From: Ruminococcus albus 7 = DSM 20455
GTDB lineage: Bacteria; Bacillota; Clostridia; Oscillospirales; Ruminococcaceae
Reading direction: 5' to 3'
NCBI RefSeq assembly: GCF_000179635.2
Contig: NC_014833.1
Coordinates: forward strand, 1,980,001 to 2,012,000
Length of the DNA stretch: 32,000 nucleotides
Shown here: positions 1 to 31,975 of the stretch, piece after piece
How positions within the stretch are numbered: the stretch's first letter is position 1
Layout: each line of letters starts with the position of its first letter
The notes under the pieces: model-generated
The model's database searches: none
What the model was told of the DNA's origin: nothing
Seen by the model: only the letters and a program-made list of their open reading frames with translations
Program-made: the position numbers and the translations under genes

Positions 1-270
1 GTTTTCAAAAGTTGATCTGGTAAACTCATTCAGCCAGCGAATTATCGATCGCAACCCTATCTGAGTCAGCATAAGAATGACGGTAAGCAGTACATAGTAC
101 CTGAATGCCCCTTTATTATGAGCCGTGGCACTGTCAACTATGTTTCGTAAAAACAATGCGTACAGAACTCCGCTTGCTCCAAGCATCGCCTGTACCAGCA
201 TAAGTGCGAGAATATACAGCTTTTTATTTCCCGGTACAGAGTAAAGCCATTTTATCGCGTTATTAGTCAT
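1..270 (-). CDS. ABC transporter permease/ATP-binding protein, first 90 codons only (gene continues past the left edge)
   Basis: Not in the ORF track. The reverse complement of 1..270 is open from ATG 270..268: MTNNAIKWLYSVPGNKKLYILALMLVQAMLGASGVLYALFLRNIVDSATAHNKGAFRYYVLLTVILMLTQIGLRSIIRWLNEFTRSTFEN. The layout (helix, IVDS, helix) matches the N-terminus of an MsbA/MdlB-type exporter TMD. The ATG overlaps the upstream stop (ATGA at 267..270). There is no C39 peptidase domain at the N-terminus. Confidence 0.65.
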   Translation of the reverse strand, partial: MTNNAIKWLYSVPGNKKLYILALMLVQAMLGASGVLYALFLRNIVDSATAHNKGAFRYYVLLTVILMLTQIGLRSIIRWLNEFTRSTFEN

Positions 271-701
271 CTTTTCAGTTTTCTTTTCAGCCATTTCGGT
301 GTTCTCTTTGCTTTAAGGATAAAGGCGCGTACAGGGAAGAAATCACACCACAAATGTACATATATCCGATATCTGATATCTGTCATAGATATCTCTCTGC
401 CGTTGCGTACTACTGCTGTCAGCACACCGATGATATTACGATCTGTTATCCCGTATTCTTTTGAGTATCGGTTATCTCCGCAGATCACATAGTCATCACT
501 GCGTACTTTCAGTACCCTGTGAAGTACGTACTGTCCGCTGTCTCGCTTGTATAGCGGTACATCATACTTTTTCATCCTACCTTCTTTTTTCTCTATGATA
601 AGTATATCCCTGTCCTGTCGTATCAGCGGTTTCATACTGTCGCCAACATTGGTATAGACAAGTCTTCCATCTCGATCTATCACATCTTCAAATTTAATCA
701 T
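267..701 (-). CDS. S24/S26-family serine peptidase, SipW-like (ER/archaeal-type Ser/His) motifs
   Basis: 144-aa ORF. GDSMKP carries the nucleophile Ser motif and YVLHRVLKV resembles the HR box of S26B/SipW-type peptidases. There is no N-terminal TM helix. Start and stop overlap both neighbours by 4 nt. Confidence 0.65.
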   Translation of the reverse strand: MIKFEDVIDRDGRLVYTNVGDSMKPLIRQDRDILIIEKKEGRMKKYDVPLYKRDSGQYVLHRVLKVRSDDYVICGDNRYSKEYGITDRNIIGVLTAVVRNGREISMTDIRYRIYVHLWCDFFPVRAFILKAKRTPKWLKRKLKR

Positions 702-1426
702 TGCATACCCTCATAAGCTGTTTTAGCAGCTGATATATCCATGTTACAGCCAAGATTATACAGTCCGACCGAATCAGCAAGTTTGTCCACCAGATTTAGG
801 GTCTTCATCATTTTAACAGCATCATCAGGTCGGTGGACCTGCTGCATGAGTATCGTATAAGCCTGTCCTGTGGTTACAGGTATTATATGGTTGTCAGCTG
901 CTCTTGTCAGTATACAGATCGCTTTCAACGGAACTGAAATATTTTCTCCTAGTCGGTGTTTTCCGTTGTACGGTGTGCCAAACGCTGTCACACCTTTGTC
1001 AGAAATGTGAAGCAGAGGCTTATCGTCATTTACCATTACGGCACGATCGCCTAAATATTCTCTCCATAGCCTTGTATGAGTGGATTTACCAGTACCTGAC
1101 TTCGCTGTGAACAGGTATCCGACTCCGTCCACTGCAATAACAGAACCGTGAAAAAGTATAGTGTCATAGTTTATCAGTTCTTCCGCGATCTTGCGGTATA
1201 CAGCTAATTCTTCAAGATAACTGTCAGTGAAATGCCTAACGGGTAAACCCTCTATTTTGTCTTCTCTCTCAGACTTTTCCCGTTCAAAGTCAATATCTGA
1301 TCGTGTAGTTGTAATGGAATAGTCTGCAGGCTCGTCTGTCAGATAGTCTGCACAGTAATCGTGTACTTCTTTGTATATTGAATTTATCTCTGCAACTTTG
1401 TCTGCTATCTTATACCTATTTACCAT
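698..1426 (-). CDS. HPr kinase C-terminal-domain-like P-loop kinase (HprK-related kinase)
   Basis: 242-aa ORF with the Walker A-like motif FTAKSGTGKSTHTRLW. Size and context match the HprK-like kinases found next to PqqD-family proteins in RiPP clusters. Confidence 0.65.
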   Translation of the reverse strand: MVNRYKIADKVAEINSIYKEVHDYCADYLTDEPADYSITTTRSDIDFEREKSEREDKIEGLPVRHFTDSYLEELAVYRKIAEELINYDTILFHGSVIAVDGVGYLFTAKSGTGKSTHTRLWREYLGDRAVMVNDDKPLLHISDKGVTAFGTPYNGKHRLGENISVPLKAICILTRAADNHIIPVTTGQAYTILMQQVHRPDDAVKMMKTLNLVDKLADSVGLYNLGCNMDISAAKTAYEGMQ

Positions 1427-2519
1427 ACTTGTTCACAGCCTTTATGATATTTTTGAGATAGTTGCGTCGTATCACCAGGATCCTTCCCCAGCGGTATACG
1501 ATCCCGATAGGATAAAGAACAGGGCATTTGTTTACAAATTTTACCGAACGTTTCATATAATCGACATTCGGAAACATATTTCTTAGGATATAGCCCGACT
1601 TGGTCTGATCCTGCAGTGCCTTTTTCATAGTGTTATCAAAGTTTCCGTATGTGCCTGCTGTCAGGTAGTACATCAGCATTTTTTCTTCATTCTCGGATAA
1701 GTCGGGAAGGTTCTCGGATGAAAACACCTTATCGGCAAGTGTACGCCGTTCTTTTTCAAAATCTTCTATCTTAAGCTTTCTGCATTGTTCTGTTATGTAA
1801 TCAAAGTCAAGAGTATCACCCTTGCTTTTCAAGAAGACATAGCAATCCAGAAGCGAGCGTATACCCGTACCGCTGCTGTTATAGTGTTTCCATTCATGTG
1901 CAGTCATGTATACATAAAAATCTTCGTCAGAAAAATGATAACTGTACTCACATCCTTCATCTTTCAACAGCATACTCTTTGTGTCAGCGTAATAACTGTA
2001 AAGCGGTTCGGGGTGTGAAGTATCAAACAGAGAGGTGTGCAGTTCAAAGTTCAGCACCGGAGGCTTCTGGTATACATCGTGATTGCTTATGCCGTAATGT
2101 TCAGCAGTATATCCGTGTGAAAGCATGATCTTATAAGTCAGTTCCTGCTTATCTTTATCGAACAGTATATCATTGTCCGACATTTCACGCATACCGTTTT
2201 CCGGATATAGATCTTTTAATACCGCACCTTTAAGCGGCATATGCCAGATCCGGTTGTTTTCAAAATCAGAGAGGATAGAGATGCGTTCCATATCCAGATA
2301 GATATTCTTCCGTAAAGCCTTCTTGTATGCCTGATCAAATTTATTATCGACTACGCCGGCGCTTTTCAAGGCGATGTTTACTGCTGCACGTACAGTATGG
2401 TATTTTGCAAGCTGATAAAGTCTTTCAATATCAATGTCCTTTATTCTCACAGAGTCAGGTTCTATACCGTTTACAGCACAGTAAAGCAGATAAATGATGT
2501 CATTATAGTTTTGGTTCAT
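1416..2519 (-). CDS. Nucleotidyltransferase family protein (NTP_transf_5 / PF14907-like)
   Basis: 367-aa ORF. MPLKGAVLKDLYPENGMREMSDNDILF matches the family signature (KG..l...Y....R.msDiDiL). It overlaps the upstream gene by 4 nt and the downstream gene by 11 nt. Confidence 0.65.
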   Translation of the reverse strand: MNQNYNDIIYLLYCAVNGIEPDSVRIKDIDIERLYQLAKYHTVRAAVNIALKSAGVVDNKFDQAYKKALRKNIYLDMERISILSDFENNRIWHMPLKGAVLKDLYPENGMREMSDNDILFDKDKQELTYKIMLSHGYTAEHYGISNHDVYQKPPVLNFELHTSLFDTSHPEPLYSYYADTKSMLLKDEGCEYSYHFSDEDFYVYMTAHEWKHYNSSGTGIRSLLDCYVFLKSKGDTLDFDYITEQCRKLKIEDFEKERRTLADKVFSSENLPDLSENEEKMLMYYLTAGTYGNFDNTMKKALQDQTKSGYILRNMFPNVDYMKRSVKFVNKCPVLYPIGIVYRWGRILVIRRNYLKNIIKAVNKYGK

Positions 2520-2779
2520 TCGTTTATAGCACCTATCGATCGAAGTTTGCTGATAGTATTCGTAACATCACGCTCTACCGTCTTACGATCAGCATCCTTG
2601 TATTCAGCCAGGAGCTTATCTACTACAGCACTTTCAGTGATATCTGACTTAAGGCATTCGATAATGAATGCTGCTGTTTCATTGTTTTTAACGATACCTT
2701 TGAAACTGGTATTGCTTGTGCTGATCATATAGTGTTCACCCTTTGTTTCGTGGGTGAGAAATCTGGGATCTAATTTCAT
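2516..2779 (-). CDS. PqqD-family peptide chaperone (RiPP recognition element, RRE)
   Basis: The track ORF 2516..2824 starts at a TTG. The internal ATG at 2779..2777 (MKLDPRFLTHE...) is preceded by AAAGGA 7 nt upstream. NETAAFIIECLKSDITESAVVDKLLAEYKDADRKTVERDVTNTISKLRSIGAI is the typical PqqD/RRE pattern. Confidence 0.7.
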   Translation of the reverse strand: MKLDPRFLTHETKGEHYMISTSNTSFKGIVKNNETAAFIIECLKSDITESAVVDKLLAEYKDADRKTVERDVTNTISKLRSIGAINE

Positions 2780-2932
2780 AGATATATCCTTTCTATATTC
2801 AGTGGCTTTATGCGTGAAAAACAATTTCTTGTGTATACGATCATTAGTATCATTTGGGTGATAGAAAAAGTCTGTACATTTGAAATTGTGAACTTCTTAT
2901 TCATCAAAACACATATCTTAATTAATAAATTT

Positions 2933-2961
2933 ATATTAACACACATTAGTTAAATTGTCAA
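2933..2961 (-). promoter_or_regulatory. Sigma-A-type promoter of the PqqD/kinase/exporter operon
   Basis: The minus strand reads TTGACA (2961..2956), a 17-nt spacer, then TAATAT (2938..2933) with TG at the extended -10 position (TGtTAATAT). Confidence 0.55.
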
Positions 2962-3191
2962 GAGAATTTGAAGACCATTTATTATAGTTATCTATTTAGC
3001 GCACCTACTTAAACTCTTTATATCAAGGATAACCGCCACATATTAAAATATCAGATATTACACCAATTAATTTGGTGCATCAGAGGGATGATCGGATTAT
3101 TTATTAATTAAGAGATCTTCTGATTCAGTTTTTTGAATTTAATGATAATCTGTATGTTGCCAATAAACTGAAAGAAAAATATTTAATTTGC

Positions 3192-3220
3192 TGGACTTTT
3201 TTTTGTTTTTGTGTTATAAT
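3192..3220 (+). promoter_or_regulatory. Candidate promoter of the AI-2E transporter gene
   Basis: TGGACT, 17 nt, TATAAT (3215..3220), with extended -10 TG at 3212..3213. Confidence 0.45.
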
Positions 3221-3251
3221 AATAGTAAATATTTTTAAGAAAGGACAGACT

Positions 3252-9409: not shown

Positions 9410-11479
<2,070 letters not shown>

Positions 11480-18699: not shown

Positions 18700-19074
18700 A
18701 TGGATGACAAGCAGCTGCTTATAGAAAAGTATCATCTTATACATGAAAACAATGCGTGGTATTCGGACAGGGAAAACTCTCATAAGCATCTTATTTTTAA
18801 AGATGTTTTCTATGAGCGGAACGATGTCATTGGACTGCTTTTTCGCATAAACAAGCTTTGTGCTGCCAAGGTAAAATACTTTCGTGCAAATATAGATAAA
18901 TTTGATCCGATGAAGTATGACTATAAAAATGGATTTATATCCGTCCCTCTGTGGGATGCTGATTTCCTGAAACATCGTGCATCCGGATTTATCATTGATT
19001 TCAGGTATTTACAGACTATTACTGTATATGAGGATTTTATTGCTCTTTGTGAAGAGCTTGAGCGTTTTGAATGA
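18700..19074 (+). CDS. Hypothetical protein
   Basis: 124-aa ORF with GGTGA 5 nt upstream of the ATG. No motif recognised. Confidence 0.5.
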   Translation: MDDKQLLIEKYHLIHENNAWYSDRENSHKHLIFKDVFYERNDVIGLLFRINKLCAAKVKYFRANIDKFDPMKYDYKNGFISVPLWDADFLKHRASGFIIDFRYLQTITVYEDFIALCEELERFE

Positions 19075-19151
19075 TAATACAAACAAAGCTAAACTGTGGC
19101 ATAAAGCTTATATTAGTGATCTGCCACTGTCATCGAGAAGGAGGTCTACTT

Positions 19152-19631
19152 ATGGAAAAACTGCTGAAACTTTTAAAGTCAAATGCAAGACTCTCAAATG
19201 CCGAACTTGCTGTAATGCTCGGTAAGACTGAGGGTGAGGTCGCCGCGGAGATAGAAAAACTGGAAAAAGACGGAATAATTACCGGTTATACTGCTATAGT
19301 TGACGAAGCTGTGTATGATCCTAATTCTGTTACCGCTTTGATCGAATTAAAAGTTACCCCACAGTCACAATCCGGCTATGATGATATAGCTAAATCCATA
19401 GCAGCTTATGATCAAGTAGAATCCGTACGACTAATGTCAGGAGTATATGACATACTGGTATCAGTTACAGGTACAAATATCCGTGAAGTTTCAAGATTTG
19501 TTGCTGAAAATCTAGCAGCTATGGATGGTGTGCAGTCTACAGCAACTCACTTTCTGCTGAGAAGCTATAAAGTCAATGGTATATCCGTTACTGCTGATGA
19601 TAAAGATGAGAGGGGATTGATGTTCCCATGA
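19152..19631 (+). CDS. Lrp/AsnC-family transcriptional regulator
   Basis: Start refined to ATG 19152 (AGGAGG upstream). The N-terminal HTH LLKSNARLSNAELAVMLGKTEGEVAAEIEKLEKDGIITGY is followed by a RAM/ACT-like domain. Confidence 0.9.
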   Translation: MEKLLKLLKSNARLSNAELAVMLGKTEGEVAAEIEKLEKDGIITGYTAIVDEAVYDPNSVTALIELKVTPQSQSGYDDIAKSIAAYDQVESVRLMSGVYDILVSVTGTNIREVSRFVAENLAAMDGVQSTATHFLLRSYKVNGISVTADDKDERGLMFP

Positions 19632-20809
19632 TAGATTACAATAAGATCCTTTCTCCTGCTATTGTGGATATGAAGCCATCCGGCATACGAAAATTCTTCG
19701 ATATTGCACAGCAGCTGGAGGGTGTTATCTCTCTTGGTGTTGGTGAACCTGATTTCAAAACACCGTGGGTGGTCAGACGTGAAGCGATAAACGTACTGGA
19801 AAAGGGCAGAACTTCTTATACTGCAAATGCAGGTCTCGCAGAACTCCGCAAAGAGATAGCACGTTATTTCAGCGACAGGATAGGTGTAAACTATGATCCC
19901 AATGATGAGATAATCGTAACCGTAGGAGGTTCTGAGGGAATAGATCTTTGTATCAGGTCCATTGTAACAGCAGGTGATGAGGTATTGATAGTTCAGCCTT
20001 CATTTGTCTGTTACAGCCCCATAGTTACACTATGCGGAGGAGTTCCTGTGCCTATAGAGACTAAGGCTGAAAATGAATTCCGTCTTACTGCCGAGGAATT
20101 AAGAAGTAAGATAACCGAAAAAACAAAACTTCTGGTTCTGCCTTTCCCGAATAATCCCACAGGTGCGATCATGCGCAGAGAAGATCTTGAAGAAATTGCA
20201 GAAGTTCTTCGTGATACAAATGTCCTTGTTCTCTCTGATGAGATATATTCTGAGCTTACATACAGCGGAAAGCACGTTTCAATTGCGTCCCTTCCTGGGA
20301 TGAGAGAGCGTACAATTGTCATAAACGGATTTTCAAAGGCTTATGCCATGACAGGCTGGCGACTTGGTATCGCTGCTGCCCCCCGGGAGATAACATCGCA
20401 GATGCTTAAACTCCACCAGTACGCTATTATGTCTTCACCGACAGTCAGTCAGTTCGCAGCGATTACAGCACTAAGGGAATGTGATGAAGATATCGCAAAA
20501 ATGCGTGATGAATACGATATGCGTCGTCGTTATCTCGTTGATGCTTTCAATAAGCTTGGTCTTGATTGTTTTACGCCTCAGGGTGCGTTTTATGTGTTCC
20601 CATGTATCAGAAGTACCGGGCTTTCAAGCAGCGATTTTTGTGAAAAACTGGTTTACAGTAAAAAAGTTGCTGTTGTTCCGGGTAATGCATTCGGTGATTG
20701 TGGCGAGGGTTTTGTGCGTGTCTCCTATGCATATTCTCTAAGCCACCTCAGAGAAGCGATAAAGCGTATCAGCGAATTTTTAGAGGAGCTTAAAAATGGC
20801 ACTGTATAA
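19628..20809 (+). CDS. Class I/II PLP-dependent aminotransferase
   Basis: 393 aa. NPTG motif (FPNNPTGA) and the PLP-lysine motif NGFSKAYAMTGWRLG. ATGA overlap with the AsnC regulator gene. Confidence 0.9.
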   Translation: MIDYNKILSPAIVDMKPSGIRKFFDIAQQLEGVISLGVGEPDFKTPWVVRREAINVLEKGRTSYTANAGLAELRKEIARYFSDRIGVNYDPNDEIIVTVGGSEGIDLCIRSIVTAGDEVLIVQPSFVCYSPIVTLCGGVPVPIETKAENEFRLTAEELRSKITEKTKLLVLPFPNNPTGAIMRREDLEEIAEVLRDTNVLVLSDEIYSELTYSGKHVSIASLPGMRERTIVINGFSKAYAMTGWRLGIAAAPREITSQMLKLHQYAIMSSPTVSQFAAITALRECDEDIAKMRDEYDMRRRYLVDAFNKLGLDCFTPQGAFYVFPCIRSTGLSSSDFCEKLVYSKKVAVVPGNAFGDCGEGFVRVSYAYSLSHLREAIKRISEFLEELKNGTV

Positions 20810-21695
20810 TAATATCAAAGTCAAGGCATACGGCAAAATAAACCTTTTGCTGGATATAATAGGAAGGCGTGAAGACGGATATCATATGCTTAATACCGTC
20901 ATGCAGACGGTAAGTGTGTATGATACGCTTGAACTTTCGATAGACGCTGATTCTCCGGAAGGTATAGAGATTGTTTGCGACAAGGAGGGATTCCCCCTTG
21001 ACAGCAGTAATCTTATCTGGAAGGCAGCTGAGTTATTCAAAGAGTATACGGGTATCACTTTCGGCGGAAAACTTATAGTCAAAGTTGAGAAAAATCTGCC
21101 GTCTCAGGCAGGTATGGGCGGCGGCAGCGCCGATTGCGCGGCCATGCTGAAAGCTATGAATACATTCTTCTGTACACTGAAAGATGAGGATGAACTCTGT
21201 GAACTTGGTGCAAAGCTTGGTGCAGATGTTCCGTTTTGTATAAAGGGCGGTACAAGGCTATGTCAGGGTATAGGTGAGATAACAAATAAGCTGCCATCCA
21301 TAGACTGTGCTTTTGTTATAGTCAAGCCGGATGTCAGTGTTTCCACACCTGAGGCTTATAAGCGTTATGATCTTATGAAATCTCCTCCGAGGAGCCATCT
21401 CGATTATTTCCTTAAATCGCTTGCTTCCGGTAATGTTTTCTCCACTATCATATACCTCTTCAATGTTTTTGAAGCAGCCATAGACCAGCCGGAGATAGCA
21501 CAGGCTAAACAGACCCTAAAAGAGGCAGGTGCCCTCAATACACTTATGACAGGCAGTGGTTCAGCTGTATTCGGTGTTTTTGAAAATGAAAAATATGCTG
21601 AACAAGCTGCTGCAAAACTTTCAGGCAAGTATAATTACTGTGAGGTATGTGTTCCCGTAAAGAGTGGATATGAGCTTATGTGGGTCAACAGATAG
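20796..21695 (+). CDS. ispE: 4-diphosphocytidyl-2-C-methyl-D-erythritol kinase
   Basis: AYGKINLLLDIIGRREDGYH and the GHMP kinase motif PSQAGMGGGSADCAA. Confidence 0.93.
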   Translation: MALYNNIKVKAYGKINLLLDIIGRREDGYHMLNTVMQTVSVYDTLELSIDADSPEGIEIVCDKEGFPLDSSNLIWKAAELFKEYTGITFGGKLIVKVEKNLPSQAGMGGGSADCAAMLKAMNTFFCTLKDEDELCELGAKLGADVPFCIKGGTRLCQGIGEITNKLPSIDCAFVIVKPDVSVSTPEAYKRYDLMKSPPRSHLDYFLKSLASGNVFSTIIYLFNVFEAAIDQPEIAQAKQTLKEAGALNTLMTGSGSAVFGVFENEKYAEQAAAKLSGKYNYCEVCVPVKSGYELMWVNR

Positions 21696-21717
21696 TATAG
21701 GAAAGGAAGGCAATTGA

Positions 21718-22719
21718 ATGAACTATAAATGTAAATTCTGCGGATACAGATTCAAGGACAAGGATGAACAGATATGTCCTGAATGCCTTACTGCCCGTGA
21801 AGATGATATTTCCTGTGGTATTTTCGGTGAAGACGAACACAGCCATGAACGTTTCGATGCTGATAATTTCTATGATGGTCGTGTTGTAAAAAGTGATACG
21901 TTCAAAGACGGTAAAGCAGATTTTCTGAAAGAAGAACGCCGTGAAGAGAACCGCGCTGCTGCTGCAAAGTACGAACGAAGAAATGGTGGAGATATCAACG
22001 TTGAGGCAACTCCGTCTCCTAGACTTTCAATAAATACGCAGTCATATAATTACGGTAACCAGTTTTCTGCAGTAAATAAAACAAATAGCCCTAAGAAGAA
22101 AAGCAGCGGTAAGGGTTGTGCTGTGTTTATTATTATTTTGATAATGCTCGGTATGTTCGGTGATAGGATACCTGAACTGATTGACAAAATCAAGGAAGAA
22201 ATAAATAGCACAAATAACAGTTCTTCCCAAGTCAGCAAAAATACCAAAGAACCCGAGATACAGGGTATTAAGGGTTCAAAATCGATCGACTGTGATTTTG
22301 ACATTTATTTGGAAAGTTTTGATATCAGCAGCATGACCTATGACGAAATGACTATTTTCCAGAAGCCTAATATTTTTTATTCGGATAATGACAACTGGAT
22401 TCCAGTCGAGGAAAGTGATCAGCGTGACTTAAAGTCTATGAAAATGACTTTTGTTTTTGAATACCCCGATCACAAAAAAGTAGAATCAGAAGATGTAGAG
22501 ATAAAAGATATCTACAGCTTTGGATATAATGCCGATAATGAGGCTACTAGTTTATATACCGGTTCAATTAATGATACTAACATTGTTAGTATCAAAAGAA
22601 CTGTTCTCAGCCCCACCATGTTTTTTGATGCAGGTTCTGAATCGGGATACATATTTATTGATCTTGATTATAAGGGCAAGGAGGTTACATTCACTTTCCC
22701 TGTTGAATTAATAGAATAA
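21718..22719 (+). CDS. Zinc-ribbon membrane protein, function unknown
   Basis: N-terminal CKFCGYRF...CPEC zinc ribbon, a single TM helix (GCAVFIIILIMLGMFG) and an extracytoplasmic C-terminal domain. Confidence 0.6.
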   Translation: MNYKCKFCGYRFKDKDEQICPECLTAREDDISCGIFGEDEHSHERFDADNFYDGRVVKSDTFKDGKADFLKEERREENRAAAAKYERRNGGDINVEATPSPRLSINTQSYNYGNQFSAVNKTNSPKKKSSGKGCAVFIIILIMLGMFGDRIPELIDKIKEEINSTNNSSSQVSKNTKEPEIQGIKGSKSIDCDFDIYLESFDISSMTYDEMTIFQKPNIFYSDNDNWIPVEESDQRDLKSMKMTFVFEYPDHKKVESEDVEIKDIYSFGYNADNEATSLYTGSINDTNIVSIKRTVLSPTMFFDAGSESGYIFIDLDYKGKEVTFTFPVELIE

Positions 22720-23624
22720 TGATTAGTAAAGAATTGCTGAAAAGCTGCAAACTTTGTCCTCGTAAATGCGGTGCTGAAAGGTTTGCAGGTAAATTGGGAT
22801 TCTGCCGCGCGGGGGCAGAGATAAAGATAGCACGTGCAGATCTTCATATGTGGGAAGAACCTCCTATCAGCGGTACTAACGGCTCGGGTACTGTCTTTTT
22901 CTCAGGCTGCAATCTGCAGTGCTGTTTTTGCCAGAATCATGTGATATCTGCTGAGGGAAAGGGCTTCGTGCTTACTGCGAAAGAACTTGCCGACACGTTT
23001 CTGATGCTGCAGGATAGGGGTGCTCATAACATAAATCTTGTAACCGCGGCTACCTATGTTCCGCAGATAATTGAAGCTCTTGACATAGCAGGGGACAAGC
23101 TTAACATACCGATCGTTTACAACAGCGGCGGATATGAAAACATTGAAACACTTGAAATGCTGAGAGGCTATGTGGATATCTTCCTGCCTGATCTGAAATA
23201 TTACTCAGGTGAGCTTTCTTCAGATTATTCCGGTGCTTCTGATTACTTTGGGTGTGCATCAAGGTCGCTCATTAAAATGCACGAGCTTGTAGGTTCGCCA
23301 AAGTTTGATGAAAACGGAATAATGAAAAGGGGAGTAATCGTAAGGCATCTTGTATTACCCTCATGTCGTCATGATTCCGCTAAGATCATCGGCTGGCTGG
23401 CAGATAATTTCACACCAAATGAGATACTTATAAGCCTTATGAGTCAGTATACTCCTATGTATAAAGCAAAGGATATCGAGGCGCTGTCCCGCAGAACGTC
23501 AACCTTTGAATATGAGTACGTTTGCAGACTTGTTGAAGGCTGTGGATTTGATGGATTTTTCCAGCAGAGAAGCGCTGCTGAGGACAAATATGTCCCGGAA
23601 TTTTTTGATAAGAAATACTATTGA
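22719..23624 (+). CDS. Radical SAM protein, PflX-type (COG1313, activating-enzyme-like)
   Basis: The FFSGCNLQCCFCQNH cluster supplies CX3CX2C. The 301-aa size is right, and no SPASM-type C-terminal Cys cluster was seen. Confidence 0.8.
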   Translation: MISKELLKSCKLCPRKCGAERFAGKLGFCRAGAEIKIARADLHMWEEPPISGTNGSGTVFFSGCNLQCCFCQNHVISAEGKGFVLTAKELADTFLMLQDRGAHNINLVTAATYVPQIIEALDIAGDKLNIPIVYNSGGYENIETLEMLRGYVDIFLPDLKYYSGELSSDYSGASDYFGCASRSLIKMHELVGSPKFDENGIMKRGVIVRHLVLPSCRHDSAKIIGWLADNFTPNEILISLMSQYTPMYKAKDIEALSRRTSTFEYEYVCRLVEGCGFDGFFQQRSAAEDKYVPEFFDKKYY

Positions 23625-23638
23625 TATCGGAGCAGCAA

Positions 23639-23989
23639 ATGAAAGAATTTAAATTACAGCCATTGCGGATATGTGCAGGTTGGAAAGTAGCCTATAATAA
23701 TTTCTCGGAATATGACCCTGAGAAAGATGAATCGGAATATTCATACGAGCTATATGAGGATCTTTTGCAGCTTGAAAACAACGAGCTTCTTATTGATCTC
23801 GGTTGGTATCCGCATGGTGAACTTGAGGGAAGTTATAAACTGTATATGGTCAATATCACTTTTGAAGCACCCTTTCAACATCCACTTGAAGTTTTTTCTT
23901 CTCGCTCAAAAACGGAGATACTTGAAAAGCTTGAATACTGGACAAATTCTGGCTTTTATCAGAAGTATATCAGGCCTACTGTAAAATGA
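23639..23989 (+). CDS. Hypothetical small protein
   Basis: Start refined to ATG 23639 (GGAG 7 nt upstream); the track starts at TTG 23621. No recognised motif. Confidence 0.5.
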   Translation: MKEFKLQPLRICAGWKVAYNNFSEYDPEKDESEYSYELYEDLLQLENNELLIDLGWYPHGELEGSYKLYMVNITFEAPFQHPLEVFSSRSKTEILEKLEYWTNSGFYQKYIRPTVK

Positions 23990-24768: not shown

Positions 24769-25644
24769 TCACTGCACCAAAGCAGCCAAGAGCCTTAAAT
24801 ACGCACTGTTTCCCAGCTTACGACGGTTGAATTTGTAACAGTATTCGGCAGCATATAACGCTGTGTGGATCTTTTCGTTTCCGTGGTAAGTTCCCATGAT
24901 CATTGCTTTGAAGTTTGAAATAACTTTATGCATCCAGTTCAGCTGACCGCTTGTCGGATCATATGTCTCAAAAACATGGAAGTATTTCTGTGCCAGCGGT
25001 TTCTTGTAACTTCGAGCATTATCACTCTCGATCTTCGAGCCAGCGCGGATATTATCCCTGGCAAATCTACCCACAGTTATACCCTTTAAATTCGGCACAT
25101 CGCTCATTTTAACGTACTCGAGATTTCCTGCTGCGTTCTTTGATAAAGCTACGATCATCTTGACTTTTTCAGTACCTCTGCCGCGCTTTTTACCGTGAGT
25201 CGGAGCACCGAGATAGGTGTCGTCAAGCTCAACTATACCGTCCAGCAAATAGCGTTCTTCACGGCATTTCATAGCTTTTCTGATGCGATGAAGGATGTAC
25301 CATGCAGTCTTGTAGGTCACCCCCAAAGACCTCATCAGCGTAACAGCAGAAACACTGCATTTGTTGCTCATAATGAGGAATGCGGTGACTATCCACAGTC
25401 TGAGCGGAATATGTGTTCTGTGCATAAAAGTTCCGTTTGTGGCGGAAATATCTGCTTTACATAACTTGCAGCGCAGCAGATGACGTGACCTTATCCTGCG
25501 GTACTCAGAGCCACCGCAAAACGGGCAGGCAAAGCCCTTTTCAAAGCGGATATCAAGCAGAAAATCCTTGCAAAAGCTTTCATCTGCGAACTTTGAGTAT
25601 ATCCCATCAAGTGTGATCTCAGGTTTCGGAAATCTTTTTGACAT
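24769..25644 (-). CDS. IS1595-family (ISXO2-like) DDE transposase with N-terminal zinc ribbon
   Basis: 291 aa. Zinc ribbon CPFCGGSEYRR...CKLCK, then the DDE_Tnp_IS1595-like core (VELDDTYLG ... IESDNARSY ... EYCYKFNRR). Confidence 0.9.
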   Translation of the reverse strand: MSKRFPKPEITLDGIYSKFADESFCKDFLLDIRFEKGFACPFCGGSEYRRIRSRHLLRCKLCKADISATNGTFMHRTHIPLRLWIVTAFLIMSNKCSVSAVTLMRSLGVTYKTAWYILHRIRKAMKCREERYLLDGIVELDDTYLGAPTHGKKRGRGTEKVKMIVALSKNAAGNLEYVKMSDVPNLKGITVGRFARDNIRAGSKIESDNARSYKKPLAQKYFHVFETYDPTSGQLNWMHKVISNFKAMIMGTYHGNEKIHTALYAAEYCYKFNRRKLGNSAYLRLLAALVQ

Positions 25645-27121: not shown

Positions 27122-28426
27122 ATGAAAATATTCTACTATACTTTCGGCTGTAAGGTAAATCAGTACGAAACTGAAAATATCCGTGAAAGATTTGAGCAGG
27201 AGGGAGACACTGCTGCAGCGGATATAGCTTCAGCAGACGTGTGTGTTATAAACAGTTGTACGGTTACCGAACAGGCGGATTCCAAGTGTATGCAGATGCT
27301 GAGAAGGATACGCAAGGTCTCACCTCGGGCTGTAACTGTTCTTGCTGGCTGTTTTCCGCAGGCATTCAGTGATAAAGCAGAGAAGCTTACCGAATGTGAT
27401 ATCATAGTAGGAACAGATGACAAAGGACGTATACCCGAGTTTACAGATAGATTTATGAAAACAGGTGAGAGGATCATAAGTATCCGTAAACATGAAAAGG
27501 GTGAAAAATTTGATACTATGACAAACAAATGCAGCGGAGAAAAAACACGGTCGTATATTAAGATACAGGATGGCTGTGATTGTTATTGCAGTTACTGTAT
27601 AATTCCGTATGCAAGAGGTCATGTCAGATCAAAACCAATGGAAGATGTTGTACGTGAGGCATCGGAGAATATTGCCGCAGGTCATAAGGAGCTTATACTT
27701 ACAGGTATAAATCTGTGTTTTTATGGAAGAGATCTTTCTGAAAGACCAACTTTGACTGATGTTGTAGAGAAAGTATGTTCACTGGACGGTGAGTTCCGAG
27801 TAAGACTTGGTTCTATAGAGCCTGAAATGATGCTTGCCGATGATATAAAACGTTTATCGGTGTTGGATAAACTTTGTCCGCATTTTCATCTTTCATTGCA
27901 AAGCGGATGTGACAGTACTCTGAAGAATATGAACAGACGATATGACTCTTCTGGATATGCTTCACTATGTGCTACTATTAGAAATTATTTTCCTGATTGT
28001 GCATTAACTACTGATATAATGGTGGGCTTTCCCGGTGAGGATGAAAAGGCTTTTGAAGAATCGCTTTCATTTGTTGAAGAGATAGCTTTTGCAGAAGCTC
28101 ATATATTTCCTTATTCAAGACGTGCAGGTACTAAAGCAGACAGTTTTACAGATCAGGTACCTCAGCATATAAAACATGAAAGGGCAAAGCGTATGGCTGA
28201 GGTATGTGCTGAATCCAAATCCGGGTTTTTAGCTGGTTGTGTCGGAAAAGTATTTGATGTTCTTTTTGAACGAGAGACCGAGGCAGATTGGCACAGCGGC
28301 CATGCACCGAATTATGTTACAGTGAAAGTAAAGAGAAACAGTCCGTCAGATTCACTTCGCAGACAGATTCGTAAGGTTCGTATAATATCGTCAGATAAAG
28401 AAGTTTGCTATGGAGAATTTGTATAG
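27122..28426 (+). CDS. mtaB: tRNA threonylcarbamoyladenosine methylthiotransferase (MtaB-type radical SAM MTTase)
   Basis: Start refined to ATG 27122. The N-terminal UPF0004 domain has FYYTFGCKVNQYETE, the radical SAM cluster is QDGCDCYCSYCIIPYARG, and a C-terminal TRAM-like domain follows. Confidence 0.85.
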   Translation: MKIFYYTFGCKVNQYETENIRERFEQEGDTAAADIASADVCVINSCTVTEQADSKCMQMLRRIRKVSPRAVTVLAGCFPQAFSDKAEKLTECDIIVGTDDKGRIPEFTDRFMKTGERIISIRKHEKGEKFDTMTNKCSGEKTRSYIKIQDGCDCYCSYCIIPYARGHVRSKPMEDVVREASENIAAGHKELILTGINLCFYGRDLSERPTLTDVVEKVCSLDGEFRVRLGSIEPEMMLADDIKRLSVLDKLCPHFHLSLQSGCDSTLKNMNRRYDSSGYASLCATIRNYFPDCALTTDIMVGFPGEDEKAFEESLSFVEEIAFAEAHIFPYSRRAGTKADSFTDQVPQHIKHERAKRMAEVCAESKSGFLAGCVGKVFDVLFERETEADWHSGHAPNYVTVKVKRNSPSDSLRRQIRKVRIISSDKEVCYGEFV

Positions 28427-28461
28427 ACCTGACATTGATCGGTCTTTATGGAGAAATTATT

Positions 28462-28641
28462 ATGAAAACAATGATTTCACTTATAACTTCTGCTACAACT
28501 ACACTCACCGCGATCCCTGCGATCAGCGTTTCGGCGGGAAAATCAGAGTATTCGCGTTGGGAAAAGTTTCTGAAATACGATAACAGGCTTGATGTCTTTG
28601 ACTATATAATGATGAAAAGAACATTGTTAAAGGATCTTTGA
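28462..28641 (+). CDS. Small secreted peptide with a degenerate half-dockerin-like C-terminus
   Basis: The internal ATG 28462 has GGAG 9 nt upstream. Signal-like MKTMISLITSATTTLTAIPAISVSA, then ...YDNRLDVFDYIMMKRTLL, resembling one dockerin repeat helix (D.N.D....D...LKKYLL). Confidence 0.4.
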   Translation: MKTMISLITSATTTLTAIPAISVSAGKSEYSRWEKFLKYDNRLDVFDYIMMKRTLLKDL

Positions 28642-28662
28642 TACATTATATATAGCTTTAGA

Positions 28663-28706
28663 AGCAGTTACGGTATTATCACTGCCGTAACTGCTTTTGT
28701 TTTTTA
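28663..28706 (+). terminator. Rho-independent terminator after the mtaB / small ORF unit
   Basis: AGCAGTTACGG (28663..28673) pairs with CCGTAACTGCT (28685..28695), followed by TTTGTTTTTT. Confidence 0.8.
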
Positions 28707-28778: not shown

Positions 28779-28807
28779 TTGACAATTTAATCGGTATATG
28801 ATAAAAT
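28779..28807 (+). promoter_or_regulatory. Sigma-A-type promoter of the LRR protein gene
   Basis: TTGACA (28779..28784), 17 nt, TAAAAT (28802..28807). This leaves a leader of about 140 nt. Confidence 0.55.
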
Positions 28808-28950: not shown

Positions 28951-30588
28951 ATGAATAATCATGTCGGATGGAAAAAAACAACAGCATTTATCATGGCATT
29001 GACTCTTGTAGCAGGCAATATGCCTGCAAACGTAGGAGGTTTTTTTACAGTAGGCACAGGCATTGTAGCTACAGCAGTACCGCCGTCTGAAAATAATTCT
29101 GGGATATTGTTTGAAAATGCATCCATAATTAATTCATGGACAAGCGGAGATTGTACCGTGACACTTGATTCTGAAGGTACTCTGACAGTATCCAAAAATG
29201 AAGGCAGCGGCAATGGCGCTATGGCGGATTATGGTTCTGCAGCTGACAGACCGTGGCACAGTATTTCTTCTGATATCAAGTCAGTAATCATCGAAGATGG
29301 TGTAACAACTGTTGGCAACGCTGCTTTTGCTTTATTTAGTGGATTAAATTCTGTAACTATTCCAGGTTCAGTTGAAATGTTAGGTTACAGATCTTTTTAT
29401 AGCTGTAATTTATCATCTCTTCATTTTGATACGAGAACAAATGATTTGACGCTTAATGTTCAAGCATTTAAAACCAATCCATTTACAACTACCGATATCA
29501 CTCCCAATAATTTGCAGTATGTTCCAATTAATAATTCAAATGCAGAACCTGCTTCTCTTACAGCAGATGCCCTTAAAAACGGTAATATTATCATAAAGGG
29601 TGTTTCTATAGTATATACACCTGTTGAAGCTAAAGCACCAACTTATGAAGAAAACGGAAATATCGCATATTATGTTGGTACAGATGACAAATATTATACT
29701 TATGATGAAACAACATCCTCATATACTGAAATAGATCTTGAAGACACTGTTATCCCAAAGCTGGAAATGCAGCCCTCTATGAATATAGTTGTTGATTCTT
29801 CTAAGATGGATCTGAATTTCTATGTTCCTATAGCTGACGATTATTCGATTTCAGATTATACTGTAACATACGGCGGCGAAGATCAGACACTTTCTGAGAT
29901 TCAGTTAAGTAATAAGAATTATGGTGTGTTTACTGTAAAGTGTGCCGCTAAGAATATGACAGATGAAAAACAATTCGTCATCAAAAACGGAGATACTCAG
30001 ATATTCAGCGAAAATATTTCTGCTGCAGGTTATCTTAAACAGCTGAAGGACCATTCGACTTACGGTCCTATGGTCAAATCCATGCTTCGATATGGTGCAG
30101 CCGCACAGAATTATTTCGGATACAAAACAGATGATCCGGCAAACAGTGGTATCGAAGGTTATGGACTTGATACTCTGAAAGAATTAAAAATTGATGATAA
30201 TTCACCTTCTCAAGTTCAATATTCTCAGGCATTTGACCTTCAGTATTCTTCATATTATGGAATGAATATGACCTATGATTATGATACATCACTGCTTATT
30301 GCATTCAGGATCACAGGCAGCTATGAAGCATCTAAGGCTGAGCTTGAAGAAAAATTCGTAAGTGAAACTTACGAAGTCACCTATGAAAAAGACAACACCG
30401 GCAATTTTATTATCGTTAAGGTAGCAAATATCCCGATCAAGAAGCTTGGTGAACCTGTCTTTACTTTTGGCGGTGTTGATGTCAAGGCAACTGATTATCT
30501 TGCAAGGATAGCAAATAATCTCGAAAAATCCGATAAATTGCGAGATCTGTGCAGAGGACTTTATGCGTTTTATGCTTCTGCAACTTAA
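28951..30588 (+). CDS. Secreted BspA-type leucine-rich-repeat (LRR_5-like) protein
   Basis: 545 aa. N-terminal signal/TM segment (TTAFIMALTLVAGNMPA). SVIIEDGVTTVGNAAFALFSGLNSVTIPGSVEMLGYRSFYSC is the BspA-like LRR pattern. RBS AAGGAGG. Confidence 0.8.
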   Translation: MNNHVGWKKTTAFIMALTLVAGNMPANVGGFFTVGTGIVATAVPPSENNSGILFENASIINSWTSGDCTVTLDSEGTLTVSKNEGSGNGAMADYGSAADRPWHSISSDIKSVIIEDGVTTVGNAAFALFSGLNSVTIPGSVEMLGYRSFYSCNLSSLHFDTRTNDLTLNVQAFKTNPFTTTDITPNNLQYVPINNSNAEPASLTADALKNGNIIIKGVSIVYTPVEAKAPTYEENGNIAYYVGTDDKYYTYDETTSSYTEIDLEDTVIPKLEMQPSMNIVVDSSKMDLNFYVPIADDYSISDYTVTYGGEDQTLSEIQLSNKNYGVFTVKCAAKNMTDEKQFVIKNGDTQIFSENISAAGYLKQLKDHSTYGPMVKSMLRYGAAAQNYFGYKTDDPANSGIEGYGLDTLKELKIDDNSPSQVQYSQAFDLQYSSYYGMNMTYDYDTSLLIAFRITGSYEASKAELEEKFVSETYEVTYEKDNTGNFIIVKVANIPIKKLGEPVFTFGGVDVKATDYLARIANNLEKSDKLRDLCRGLYAFYASAT

Positions 30589-30605
30589 GAAAGAGGTGAA
30601 CTTTA

Positions 30606-30728
30606 ATGGATAAGAAATATGTTACTCCCGAAATGGAGATCACCGAGTTTTTGAATGAAGATGTGATAACAACATCTACACCTGATTATACTGATCCCAA
30701 TACACCCGGCGGTGAAGGCTGGGGCTGA
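30606..30728 (+). CDS. 40-aa acidic peptide, candidate RiPP (lasso-like) precursor
   Basis: Not in the ORF track (<60 aa). AAGAGGTGA lies 6 nt before the ATG. Product: MDKKYVTPEMEITEFLNEDVITTSTPDYTDPNTPGGEGWG, stop TGA 30726..30728. A terminator follows 40 nt downstream. Confidence 0.55.
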   Translation: MDKKYVTPEMEITEFLNEDVITTSTPDYTDPNTPGGEGWG

Positions 30729-30767
30729 TAATACAACAATTAATCAGGATACAGTATTAGAGATATG

Positions 30768-30806
30768 CGCTGCGTCATTTCCATGTAGGGTTGACGCAGC
30801 GTTTTT
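30768..30806 (+). terminator. Rho-independent terminator after the LRR gene / small peptide ORF
   Basis: CGCTGCGTCA (30768..30777) pairs with TGACGCAGCG (30792..30801), followed by TTTTT. Confidence 0.8.
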
Positions 30807-31814: not shown

Positions 31815-31975
31815 ATGATTATCCCGATGACACACCACATTAATTAGTATTATATCGGAACTTGAAACACTTGGCGGTTATCCTCACCCCGCCGCAGACG
31901 GGGAAATGATAACTACGACACGATATTACCGTGTTATATAGCACTTTGTGGTGGTGTGCTAAATGGATAACCATG
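31815..31975. mobile_element. 161-bp non-autonomous (MITE-like) derivative of the IS1595-family element
   Basis: The left end ATGATTATCCCGATGACACACCACA and the right end (reverse complement CATGGTTATCCATTTAGCACACCACCACA) are homologous to the IS ends at 24736 and 25758. It has no ORF and is flanked by TTTTTTAT at 31807..31814 and 31976..31983. Confidence 0.65.

Follow-up and report, generated by a model that had tools for sequence, protein, structure and literature searches.

Does a 40-codon open reading frame (ORF) that follows a leucine-rich repeat (LRR) gene in Ruminococcus albus 7 encode a genuine peptide, and if so, is it the precursor of a lasso peptide? A first-pass annotation, made from the sequence alone, had proposed both. 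We addressed the question within a 32,000-nt stretch of contig NC_014833.1, here called the window, and in loci of public assemblies that carry homologues of the peptide.

A small conserved gene downstream of an LRR gene

We first re-examined the sequence. The ORF, its ribosome-binding site, the 17-nt gap after the LRR gene and the terminator are all present, as are the acidic, hydrophilic composition of the product (pI 4.05, GRAVY -0.89) and the absence of any hydrophobic segment. What had been observed at this locus is therefore confirmed, with the exception that the ORF is not unannotated, as it is recorded as ADU22253.1 / WP_013498418.1, a hypothetical protein. The features of the window are collected in Table 1. 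A simple terminator scanner missed the terminator only because its loop is long.

Table 1. Features of the window relevant to the peptide gene and the putative maturation operon.
Position	Strand	Feature	Basis
28659..28699		Terminator-like hairpin preceding the promoter-like site	Sequence scan
28779..28807	+	Promoter-like site (TTGACA-17-TAAAAT with TG) ahead of the LRR gene; probably drives a two-gene LRR + peptide transcript	Consensus match only
28951..30588	+	Secreted LRR_5 (BspA-type) protein, 545 aa, ADU22252.1; stop codon at 30586-30588	Pfam LRR_5 2.1e-10
29782..30573	+	Uncharacterised ~270-aa C-terminal domain of the LRR protein (residues ~278-541)	Iterated HMM; AF2 model pLDDT 88.9
30591..30599	+	Shine-Dalgarno site AAGAGGTGA, 6 nt before the ATG	Read from the sequence
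30606..30728	+	Peptide ORF, ATG at 30606, stop at 30726-30728; product MDKKYVTPEMEITEFLNEDVITTSTPDYTDPNTPGGEGWG	Family profile E = 1.5e-21, no disabling mutation
30606..30677	+	Leader, codons 1-24, MDKKYVTPEMEITEFLNEDVITTS; contains Y5-x-x-P8-x-M10 and Ser24	Family alignment
30678..30728	+	Hypervariable acidic core, codons 25-40, TPDYTDPNTPGGEGWG, plus stop codon	Boundary after Ser24 inferred
30767..30806	+	Intrinsic terminator ending the LRR + peptide unit; 11-bp GC-rich stem (30767-30777 / 30792-30802), T run to 30806	MFE -27.7 kcal/mol, z = -3.9, 0 of 200 shuffles fold as well
2516..2779	-	PqqD-family protein, 87 aa, ADU22223.1, the presumed RRE that binds the leader	Pfam PqqD 6.9e-13; nearest NCBIfam model lasso_PqqD_Strm 9e-9, 35 bits against a cut-off of 70
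1416..2519	-	NTP_transf_5 (PF14907, here NTP5) nucleotidyltransferase-fold protein, 367 aa; start overlaps the PqqD stop	Pfam 3.8e-43, 148 bits against a gathering threshold of 31.2; AF2 model pLDDT 92.5
698..1426	-	ScmC / HPr-kinase-like P-loop protein, 242 aa, ADU22221.1; Walker A motif SGTGKST (111-117), ND134D135 motif	TIGR04249 ScmC 1.2e-7 and Hpr_kinase_C 0.0038, both below cut-off; precomputed Pfam PF27840 ScmC
267..701	-	S24/S26-type serine peptidase-like protein, 144 aa, ADU22220.1, presumed leader peptidase; motifs GDSMKP and GDNR	TIGR02228 7.9e-6 and Peptidase_S24 0.015, both below cut-off; RefSeq name 'S24/S26 family peptidase'; maximum 19-residue hydropathy 1.08, no membrane segment
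1..294	-	First 97 codons of the operon's ABC exporter, cut by the window edge	HMM hit 2.2e-42

Pfam and NCBIfam gave nothing meaningful for the peptide. However, the exact peptide is called in at least 40 blocks of public assemblies, and a profile built from it finds 1,604 cluster representatives. Conservation of the reading frame had been named beforehand as a test of the annotation, and we measured it in the leader of 24 distinct homologues. Nucleotide differences fall 955/685/2884 on codon positions 1/2/3, with 2112 synonymous against 1172 non-synonymous codon differences, showing that the frame is under purifying selection. No family peptide was found in the plasmid collection. We found no paper that contains the motif strings or the protein accessions, and PF14907 was encountered only in an unrelated phosphonate paper.

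The family alignment separates the peptide into two parts. In 124 aligned members Tyr5 and Ser24 are invariant, and Pro8, Glu11, Ile12, Phe15, Asp19 and Ile21 are at least 90% conserved. Position 10 is Met in 23 of 24 distinct homologues and otherwise Ile, Leu or Val. The cores that follow are 6–47 aa long, share no conserved residue and carry a mean net charge of about -3. The linear core of the window's peptide has an average mass of 1663.65 Da. The closest relative in a contiguous cluster is L021/L121 (the loci are designated by L numbers), with core VPDYNDPNTPGGEGWG.

Genomic neighbourhood of the peptide family

In order to see which genes accompany the family, we mapped its members by tblastn and HMM searches. 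One homologue (P0003) lies directly upstream of PqqD and NTP_transf_5. Of 64 informative non-redundant loci, 27 have operon genes within 5 kb downstream on the same strand, the peptide lying directly upstream of PqqD and NTP_transf_5. Seven of these have the full PqqD-NTP5-ScmC-S24-ABC set, and eight loci show only PqqD and NTP5, thus the kinase-like protein, the peptidase and the exporter are not obligatory neighbours. The remaining 37 of 64 loci are orphans, so physical linkage is frequent but not the rule. To detect any other maturase near orphan peptides we clustered 190 downstream ORFs, and the only recurrent families were operon members: NTP5 in 20 loci, ABC in 11, ScmC in 11 and S24 in 6. 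In the reverse direction, all four NTP5-homologue loci that we chose solely by the size of their contigs have a family peptide just upstream of PqqD, and two of these loci are new. Three MAGs each carry one operon-adjacent locus and one orphan locus, as R. albus does.

The PqqD protein of the window is 68–83% identical to the PqqD genes found directly downstream of family peptides. A precursor next to the window's own PqqD gene was not found, as the family profile scores only the ORF at 30606 in all six frames of the window, and the stretch 2825..3250 on the - strand has no plausible ORF. We also considered that a repeat upstream of PqqD might be a shared regulatory RNA, but it has no Rfam match and is restricted to R. 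albus contigs. In full contigs the exporter gene continues as 248 + 318 aa ORFs, split by a frameshift in an A8 run, so the pathway may be impaired in this strain.

In the NTP5 protein D115 and D117 are invariant and form the DxD motif. Its predicted fold gives weak matches to LnuA, ANT(2'')-Ia, Cid1 and FKRP (those to LnuA, ANT(2'')-Ia and Cid1 all with E > 0.001), consistent with a Pol-beta-type nucleotidyltransferase fold. The ANT(2'')-Ia entries 5cfs and 4xje are the same as those reported for PsmN (PMC6993621). Sequence searches of NTP5 and of the C-terminal domain of the LRR protein against the PDB returned nothing.

Upstream of the peptide the arrangement is even more consistent. Large secreted proteins, orthologous and paralogous, precede the peptide in 71 of 84 loci, as a same-strand ORF ending within 120 nt. 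In 11 of 16 genome loci the gaps are 3–28 nt, and as gaps of this length fall in mixed frames, we rejected read-through or a frameshifted extension of the LRR gene. An iterated HMM finds the C-terminal domain at the extreme C-terminus of 49 of 81 upstream ORFs, making it the family's most frequent upstream neighbour. Their N-terminal parts differ (LRR_5, Flg_new_2, cohesin/DUF285, F5/8-C). The other 32 of 81 lack the domain, and at least two other C-terminal types occur. The domain has no Pfam match. Its AF2 model is an Ig-like sandwich plus an alpha/beta subdomain with only generic Ig matches in the PDB, but this model rests on a shallow alignment, as a last homologue search gave only 4 hits, a limitation of the word index.

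Comparison with lasso and other RRE-dependent systems

As the annotation had suggested a lasso peptide, we asked whether lasso enzymes accompany the family. We used a bona fide lasso cyclase (which has the PP-loop motif SGGLDS) and B2 protease from a control locus, L119, on Butyrivibrio fibrisolvens pNP243. Searching with these by phmmer gave 0 hits in 5,875 ORFs (1.14 Mb) around 118 family loci plus the window, while the same search found the N protein in 29 loci. No PP-loop ORF of 350 aa or more exists there either. Pfam annotation found neither a PF00733 cyclase nor a PF13471 protease in the window or within 10 kb beyond either of its ends, and an unrelated S24/S26-like serine peptidase takes the place of B2 in the operon. 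A published mining of the complete R. albus 7 genome listed no lasso locus in the parts that we consulted (PMC4289311).

The precursor itself was compared with the lasso rules. A PqqD-type RRE is associated with the family, and a motif of the YxxPxL type is present, although its Tyr lies 19–20 residues before the junction against the canonical 17. Thr at the proposed -2 position is common but not invariant (Thr22 in 225 and Thr23 in 217 of 259 peptides, replaced by A/V/E/D/G/I/Y/M), with the cleavage site only inferred. Ile21 could serve as Ile(-2) if cleavage followed residue 22, for which there is a precedent (PMC10368454). The window's peptide has Asp30 at core position 7–9 only if the core starts at residues 22–24, being position 7 for a start at Ser24. 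With a start at residue 25, positions 7–9 are P-N-T. Across the family, 42 of 259 cores are 10 aa or shorter, some next to a complete operon (e.g. TTS|DPELEPQ in locus L077), which is too short for a ring plus a threaded tail. Asp or Glu at positions 7–9 occurs in 145 of 231 cores, barely above the 125 expected from shuffled cores. We conclude that the earlier interpretation is partly supported: a leader of the kind PqqD-type RREs bind, followed by a core, agrees with the data, whereas the lasso part does not find support.

The closest systems are lasso clusters of the Firmicutes/Proteobacteria type with kinase (K) and nucleotidyltransferase (N) tailoring, namely paeninodin (pade), pseudomycoidin (psm), Bradymonas bsf and L119. 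With these the present system shares a discrete PqqD-type RRE, a leader with (Y/W)xxPx(L/M) (compare MKAWNTPVMESLEINETAG of L119 with MDKKYVTPEMEITEF here), a nucleotidyltransferase (PF14907 here and in L119) with a DxD motif and an ANT(2'')-like predicted fold, an HPr-kinase-like P-loop protein with a DD motif, an MdlB-type ABC exporter and acidic, Gly/Pro-rich cores. Both N proteins of L119 are PF14907. NTP5 matches the N protein of that locus distantly (24% identity, 5e-10), and the ScmC-like protein aligns with its kinase at the P-loop and DD motif. Apart from the missing cyclase and transglutaminase-like B2, the differences are cores as short as 6 aa, the lack of a conserved C-terminal Ser, the peptide genes following large secreted-protein genes, and N (with PqqD) being the most constant enzyme rather than an optional tailoring step.

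Haft's uncharacterised SynChlorMet cassette (ScmC, TIGR04249) and HPr-rel-A system (TIGR04352/04353/04355) likewise combine a PqqD-family chaperone with an HPr-kinase-like/ScmC protein in a presumed peptide-modification context, and ScmC is the best NCBIfam hit of the 242-aa protein. However, all scores are far below the curated cut-offs (31.4 against 125 bits for ScmC, 12.2 against 200 for HprK_rel_A and 16.2 against 35 for PqqD_rel_X), the operon contains no radical SAM gene where SynChlorMet has two radical SAM/SPASM partners, and the present system has an identified precursor family, which is not known for those cassettes. Generic RRE-dependent RiPP pathways such as PqqA/PqqD share a short ribosomal peptide with a conserved leader bound by a PqqD-fold domain, a hypervariable core, tandem and distal precursor copies, a dedicated peptidase and an ABC exporter. 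Here the modifying set is a nucleotidyltransferase fold with or without a kinase-like protein, without radical SAM, YcaO, cyclase or LanM-type enzymes, and we found no paper describing this set acting without the lasso cyclase and B2.

Proposed pathway and alternative readings

Taken together, we consider it more likely than not that the ORF encodes the precursor of a so far undescribed, lasso-related but cyclase-less RiPP-type pathway, whose genes lie 28 kb away at the other end of the window. Our data establish that the gene is real and selected, that it belongs to a huge family with a conserved 24-residue leader and a hypervariable acidic tail, and that family members are physically linked to the operon in many genomes, in both directions of search. 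They also establish an ancestral arrangement (L021/L121) of secreted protein, peptide(s), PqqD, NTP5, ScmC, S24 peptidase and ABC, of which the secreted protein + peptide half and the operon half are 28 kb apart in R. albus. For the window's copy, a distal "orphan", the assignment to the operon rests on family behaviour and on this contiguous orthologous cluster.

The binding, modification, cleavage and export steps, like expression itself, are inferred by analogy. The PqqD protein would bind the leader through Tyr5/Pro8/Met10, as lasso B1 proteins bind YxxPxL, and present it to the nucleotidyltransferase-fold enzyme and, where present, to the kinase-like protein. The likeliest acceptor is Ser24 at the leader/core junction, as it is the only invariant residue outside the RRE-binding motif region and 36 cores contain no Ser, Thr or Tyr at all. 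Precedents are PsmK/PsmN, in which a Ser is phosphorylated and a hexose is then added to the phosphate, and BsfK, with B1-dependent phosphorylation of core Ser3 just after an Ile(-2) leader (PMC6993621, PMC8498205, PMC10368454). The S24/S26-type peptidase would remove the leader. As it lacks a membrane segment, we tentatively treat it as a cytoplasmic leader peptidase rather than an ordinary membrane signal peptidase for the upstream proteins. The ABC transporter would export a short acidic, possibly phospho-/glycosyl- or nucleotidyl-decorated peptide. The absence of any conserved core residue is unusual for a RiPP, and the stronger linkage to the upstream secreted protein hints at a role that this model does not explain. 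This tight coupling suggests a role at the cell surface or in signalling rather than a classical bacteriocin.

If this reading is right, at least 1,600 sequence clusters of small peptides, annotated only as hypothetical proteins or not called at all, are substrates of an RRE-dependent pathway missed by standard genome-mining rules, which look for the lasso cyclase and B2. It would also offer a natural system in which the lasso 'N' nucleotidyltransferase, of unresolved chemistry, is the core enzyme, its reaction being directly testable with a short linear substrate. The link to large secreted proteins of fibre-degrading rumen bacteria (LRR/BspA-type, Flg_new_2-type and cohesin-containing) may point to an unknown mechanism in surface-protein biology or cell-cell signalling in the rumen. 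For annotation, short ORFs that directly follow large genes should not be dismissed. A further-reaching reading, which we regard as possible but tentative, is a new class of ribosomal peptide system abundant in rumen and gut Oscillospiraceae/Ruminococcus, in which a lasso-type RRE recruits the PF14907 enzyme (with or without the HPr-kinase-like protein) as primary maturase acting at the junction serine, and the soluble serine protease is the leader peptidase. The product would be functionally coupled to the C-terminal domain, previously unrecognised and shared by otherwise diverse large secreted proteins, as a peptide/surface-protein module rather than a free antibiotic.

Among the alternatives, a chance ORF or non-functional remnant could be argued from the 40-codon length, the separation from the operon and the frameshifted exporter, but it is contradicted by the conservation data as well as by the canonical Shine-Dalgarno site, the terminator and the intact match to the family profile, and we regard it as all but excluded. 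A true lasso precursor, cut near Thr22-Ser24 and joined to Asp30 by a cyclase and B2 protease encoded elsewhere in the genome, is very unlikely. The YxxPxM motif, a PqqD partner closest to lasso B1 models, N and K-like genes typical of lasso tailoring and the position of Asp30 speak for it, but the missing enzymes around the family loci, the short cores and the near-random placement of acidic residues weigh heavily against it. We also find it improbable that the logic is inverted, with the conserved 24-mer as product and the tail as a discarded follower. In this view the peptidase cuts after Ser24 to create a C-terminal Ser, the substrate preferred by lasso-type HPr-kinase homologues, which is phosphorylated and further decorated by the nucleotidyltransferase. 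Ser24 does mark the end of conservation, PadeK/PsmK-type kinases act on a C-terminal Ser with little regard for the rest of the peptide (PMC8498205, PMC6993621), and small residues at -1 (Ser) and mostly at -3 (Thr/Ala/Gly) fit an S26-type cleavage site. However, the tails fall into conserved subfamilies (DPELEPQ, GDPETPFVPFSEK, ..DPNTPxxGWG, ..DFPxTPIP) that recur across loci, which implies selection on the tail, and in known RRE systems the RRE-bound segment is the discarded part. Moreover, the ScmC-like protein is only remotely related to these kinases, with 0 phmmer hits to a real lasso kinase and only a P-loop alignment.

An explanation that overlaps with the favoured one, but that we still consider unlikely, is that the peptide primarily serves as a partner of the upstream secreted protein, for example a subunit, ligand, anchor or inhibitor of its C-terminal domain, with the PqqD operon as mere maturation and export machinery. 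The upstream ORFs without the domain argue against this, the domain model gives no hint of a peptide-binding or catalytic site, and adjacency and co-variation could reflect shared descent and co-transcription only. In its favour are the close and frequent adjacency itself and the single promoter-like site and single terminator of the window unit. In one database protein (P0146, 1,032 aa) the peptide is fused in frame to that domain, although this single fusion could be an assembly or frameshift artefact. Finally, the type of core tracks the type of upstream protein.

The peptide gene and its family

We first verified the open reading frame (ORF) reported by the first-pass annotation. It was found exactly where it had been placed, and encodes MDKKYVTPEMEITEFLNEDVITTSTPDYTDPNTPGGEGWG, an acidic (pI 4.05) and hydrophilic peptide. 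The upstream LRR_5 gene stops 17 nt before its start codon. The terminator downstream of the ORF is real, with an MFE of -27.7 kcal/mol (z = -3.9), and none of 200 shuffled sequences folded as well. As the LRR gene is preceded by a promoter-like site and by another terminator-like hairpin, the LRR gene and the peptide gene look like a two-gene unit. A small ORF with a signal-like N-terminus, called as 59 aa in related contigs, lies between the MiaB/MtaB-like gene and the LRR gene and ends at this second, strong hairpin. Thus, the observation was confirmed, except that the ORF had been called unannotated. This holds only for the annotation track that had been inspected, since GenBank/RefSeq list the ORF from Ruminococcus albus 7 as a hypothetical protein (ADU22253.1/WP_013498418.1). 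The coordinates of all features are collected in the table.

Features of the window discussed in the text, with strand where given
Position	Feature	Basis or detail
1..294 (-)	Start of an ABC exporter	Gene starts at 294
267..701 (-)	S24/S26-type peptidase-like protein, 144 aa	GDSMKP and GDNR motifs
698..1426 (-)	ScmC/HPr-kinase-like P-loop protein, 242 aa	Walker A and N-D-D motifs
1416..2519 (-)	NTP_transf_5 protein, 367 aa	Pfam, 3.8e-43
2516..2779 (-)	PqqD protein, 87 aa	Pfam, 6.9e-13; nearest NCBIfam model lasso_PqqD_Strm, below cut-off
2985-3075 (-)	Repeat element upstream of the PqqD operon	Inverted repeat
19071..23989 (+)	Run of genes, possibly a small-molecule pathway
24769..25644 (-)	IS1595-family transposase	DDE_Tnp_IS1595 + Zn_ribbon_IS1595
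28405..28641 (+)	Small ORF	Signal-like N-terminus
28659..28699	Terminator-like hairpin
28779..28807	Promoter-like site of the LRR gene
28951..30588	LRR_5 gene	Pfam LRR_5, 2.1e-10
28951..29090	N-terminal signal-like region of the LRR protein
29782..30573	C-terminal domain of the LRR protein	Residues 278-541
30591-30599	Shine-Dalgarno site AAGAGGTGA	6 nt before the ATG
30606..30728	Peptide ORF	ATG at 30606, TGA at 30726-30728
30767..30806	Terminator	11-bp GC-rich stem (30767-30777/30792-30802), T run to 30806
31845-31975 (+)	Repeat element downstream of the Mrp/ParA gene	Inverted repeat

The identical peptide is called in at least 40 assembly blocks. An initial homologue search yielded six relatives with the same N-terminal 24 residues and different tails. 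A profile search of 1.84 billion representative proteins then returned 1,604 cluster representatives at E <= 0.001, nearly all of which are 30–70 aa long. In an alignment of 124 members Tyr5 and Ser24 are invariant, Pro8, Glu11, Ile12, Phe15, Asp19 and Ile21 are at least 90% conserved, and nothing after Ser24 is conserved. To evaluate the conservation of the reading frame, which had been set beforehand as a test of the ORF, we compared the leaders of 24 distinct homologues taken from genome loci. The nucleotide differences fall 955/685/2884 on codon positions 1/2/3, and the codon differences are 2112 synonymous against 1172 non-synonymous, so the reading frame passes. The ORF is therefore a real gene and a member of a very large family. 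No Pfam or NCBIfam model covers this family, and none of the papers that could be searched contains its motif strings or accessions.

Genomic context of the family and the operon in the window

The decisive lead was the homologue P0003, which lies directly upstream of a PqqD gene and an NTP_transf_5 (NTP5) gene. To see where the family sits in general, we collected 18 loci from species-representative genomes, 80 from metagenomes and several by exact protein look-up (designated with L numbers), and mapped the operon proteins with tblastn and iterated HMMs. Among 94 non-redundant loci, 27 have operon genes within 5 kb downstream on the same strand, 37 are orphans with at least 1.5 kb of sequence downstream, and 30 are too short to tell. 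The complete order is peptide(s), PqqD, NTP_transf_5, ScmC/HPr-kinase-like protein, S24/S26-type peptidase and ABC exporter, which recurs in L021/L121, L059, L070, L077, L102, L105 and L107. Reordered versions are seen in L064, L081, L086 and L112, and eight loci show PqqD and NTP5 only. Clustering of all 190 ORFs within 4 kb downstream of the peptides yielded only operon members as recurrent families. We also carried out the search in the reverse direction, with four NTP5 homologues chosen only because they sit on long contigs. All four have a family peptide just upstream of PqqD; two of these loci are new, and in one the peptide had not been called as a gene. Tandem pairs of precursor genes are common. 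In L021/L121, L022, L023, L036 and many metagenome loci they recur with a fixed pairing of core types, for example ..DPNTPxxGWG followed by ..DFPxTPIP, often with overlapping stop and start codons, suggesting two-peptide products.

The same operon is present at the left end of the window, on the - strand. No family peptide or remnant lies next to it, as the family profile hits only the ORF at 30606 in the whole window. The closest contiguous relative, L021/L121, has an LRR-protein homologue (48% identical over the C-terminal 370 aa), a peptide 78% identical to that of the window with core VPDYNDPNTPGGEGWG, a second peptide, and then the full operon. In R. albus the two halves are therefore separated by 28 kb of housekeeping genes. 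Three MAGs likewise carry one operon-adjacent locus and one orphan locus. We conclude that the peptide of the window is a distal substrate of this operon, which is an inference from family behavior and not a demonstration.

In R. albus the ABC exporter gene is split into ORFs of 248 and 318 aa by a frameshift inside an A8 homopolymer, just outside the left edge of the window (about 11135-11145 of locus L016). In L021, L070, L077 and L102 it is a single ORF of 566–593 aa. The split gene could be a pseudogene, a slippery or phase-variable site, or an error shared by the assemblies. Two copies of a ~110–150 nt element containing the inverted repeat GGCGGTTATCC...GGATAAC, one of them with a 47-nt insertion, are present, one lying upstream of the PqqD operon and the other downstream of the Mrp/ParA gene. 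The element has no Rfam match and occurs only in R. albus contigs among the fetched loci. An IS1595-family transposase between the HD-domain gene and the DUF218 gene is absent from the otherwise collinear same-species contigs L002 and L006 and is a strain-specific insertion. A further run of genes encodes an AsnC-type regulator, a class I/II aminotransferase, a GHMP kinase, a 333-aa protein with no family, a 301-aa radical SAM protein resembling glycyl-radical activases, and a 122-aa protein with no family. It may be a small-molecule pathway and appears unrelated to the peptide.

Comparison with lasso clusters and the inferred pathway

The first-pass annotation had interpreted the ORF as lasso-precursor-like. 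To evaluate this we used a genuine rumen lasso cluster (L119, Butyrivibrio fibrisolvens plasmid pNP243) as a positive control, in which Pfam readily finds B2 (Transglut_core3), the cyclase (Asn_synthase), the kinase (Hpr_kinase_C), two PF14907 N proteins and PqqD. Its precursor is MKAWNTPVMESLEINETAG/GYNQ..., with the slash at the leader/core boundary. Searching all 5,875 ORFs of the family loci and the window (1.14 Mb) with this cyclase and this B2 gave no hit, while the N protein hit 29 loci and the B1 hit 6, weakly. No ORF of 350 aa or more among them has a PP-loop. Thr22 and Thr23 are frequent (225 and 217 of 259) but replaceable. The cores are 6–47 aa long (median 15) and 42 are 10 aa or shorter, for example TTS/DPELEPQ, which lies next to a complete operon in L077. 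D/E at core positions 7–9 occurs in 145 of 231 cores, against 125 expected from shuffled cores. A published mining of the complete R. albus 7 genome reports, in the parts consulted, only a sactipeptide locus (PMC4289311). Thus, the earlier interpretation is supported in part: the peptide is an RRE-recognized precursor as judged from sequence and linkage but, judged from the family loci and the window searched, not a lasso precursor. The resemblance to lasso precursors is real, but reflects a shared RRE-binding logic and not a shared product topology.

Whereas the linkage of the family to the operon is shown by the analysis, the steps of the pathway, from leader binding through modification and leader removal to export, are inferred. 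In this view, the PqqD protein would bind the leader through Tyr5/Pro8/Met10, as lasso B1 proteins bind YxxPxL (PMC10368454). The NTP5 enzyme and, where present, the kinase-like protein would then modify the bound peptide. NTP5 has an invariant D115-x-D117 and a confident structural model (pLDDT 92.5). Its only structural neighbors, all weak (E > 0.001), are Pol-beta-type nucleotidyltransferases, namely LnuA, ANT(2'')-Ia, Cid1 and FKRP, and the ANT(2'') entries 5cfs/4xje are the same ones reported for PsmN (PMC6993621). The Walker A and N-D-D motifs of the ScmC-like protein align with the kinase of the control lasso cluster. In lasso pathways the K enzyme phosphorylates a Ser and N then adds hexose to the phosphate, and in the bsf pathway K phosphorylates core Ser3, just after an Ile(-2) leader, in a B1-dependent way (PMC10368454). 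In the present family the only invariant hydroxyl is Ser24, three residues after the nearly invariant Ile21, and 36 cores have no Ser, Thr or Tyr at all. Ser24 is therefore the most parsimonious acceptor. The S24/S26-like protein has no membrane segment and is the likely leader peptidase; small residues at -1 (Ser24) and mostly at -3 would fit cleavage at a putative site after Ser24. The ABC transporter would export the product, although the split exporter gene means that this strain may be impaired.

The system would work like the accessory half of a Firmicutes-type lasso cluster (B1, N, K-like, D), but it lacks both class-defining enzymes, has an unrelated serine peptidase, and N is its most constant enzyme. 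It is not a member of the lasso class, nor of the SynChlorMet or HPr-rel-A cassettes, for which all scores are far below the cut-offs. It does fit the generic definition of an RRE-linked precursor family, and we regard it as a probable RRE-dependent ribosomal peptide pathway, a kind that is already known. Literature searches that left out most subscription journals found no description of the peptide family, of this gene set without a cyclase, or of the C-terminal domain described below. We are fairly confident that the peptide is a substrate of the PqqD/NTP5 operon and not a lasso precursor, whereas modification at Ser24 by phosphoryl, glycosyl or nucleotidyl transfer remains a tentative proposal.

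The upstream secreted proteins

In 71 of 84 loci a same-strand ORF ends within 120 nt upstream of the peptide, and in 11 of 16 genome loci the gap is 3–28 nt. These ORFs encode large secreted proteins with varied N-terminal regions (LRR_5, Flg_new_2, F5/8-C, cohesin/DUF285). Of 81 such ORFs, 49 end in the same ~270-aa domain as the LRR protein of the window. This domain, which appears to be previously undescribed, is shared by otherwise unrelated proteins and is always followed directly by a family peptide gene. It has no Pfam or PDB relative. Its model (pLDDT 88.9, from a shallow alignment) predicts an Ig-like sandwich plus an alpha/beta subdomain, with only generic Ig matches. One database protein, P0146 (1,032 aa), carries a family peptide (…KAYVTPEMEITLFSQEDVITTSGGEAVVPDPP…) fused in frame to this domain, which is either a natural gene fusion or an assembly artefact. 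The core type of the peptide tracks the type of upstream protein. The linkage to the upstream proteins is at least as consistent as that to the operon and is not explained by the plain RiPP model, and we keep a role tied to this partner as a partly overlapping rival explanation.

Many of the large upstream proteins also share a distinctive N-terminal signal-like region (…WKKTxAGLMALLIVxGxxP…AITAxA), seen for example in the LRR protein of the window and in L027, L031, L055, L100 and L106. An iterated HMM of this region hits 21 of the upstream ORFs, and it may be a specialized export or sorting signal.
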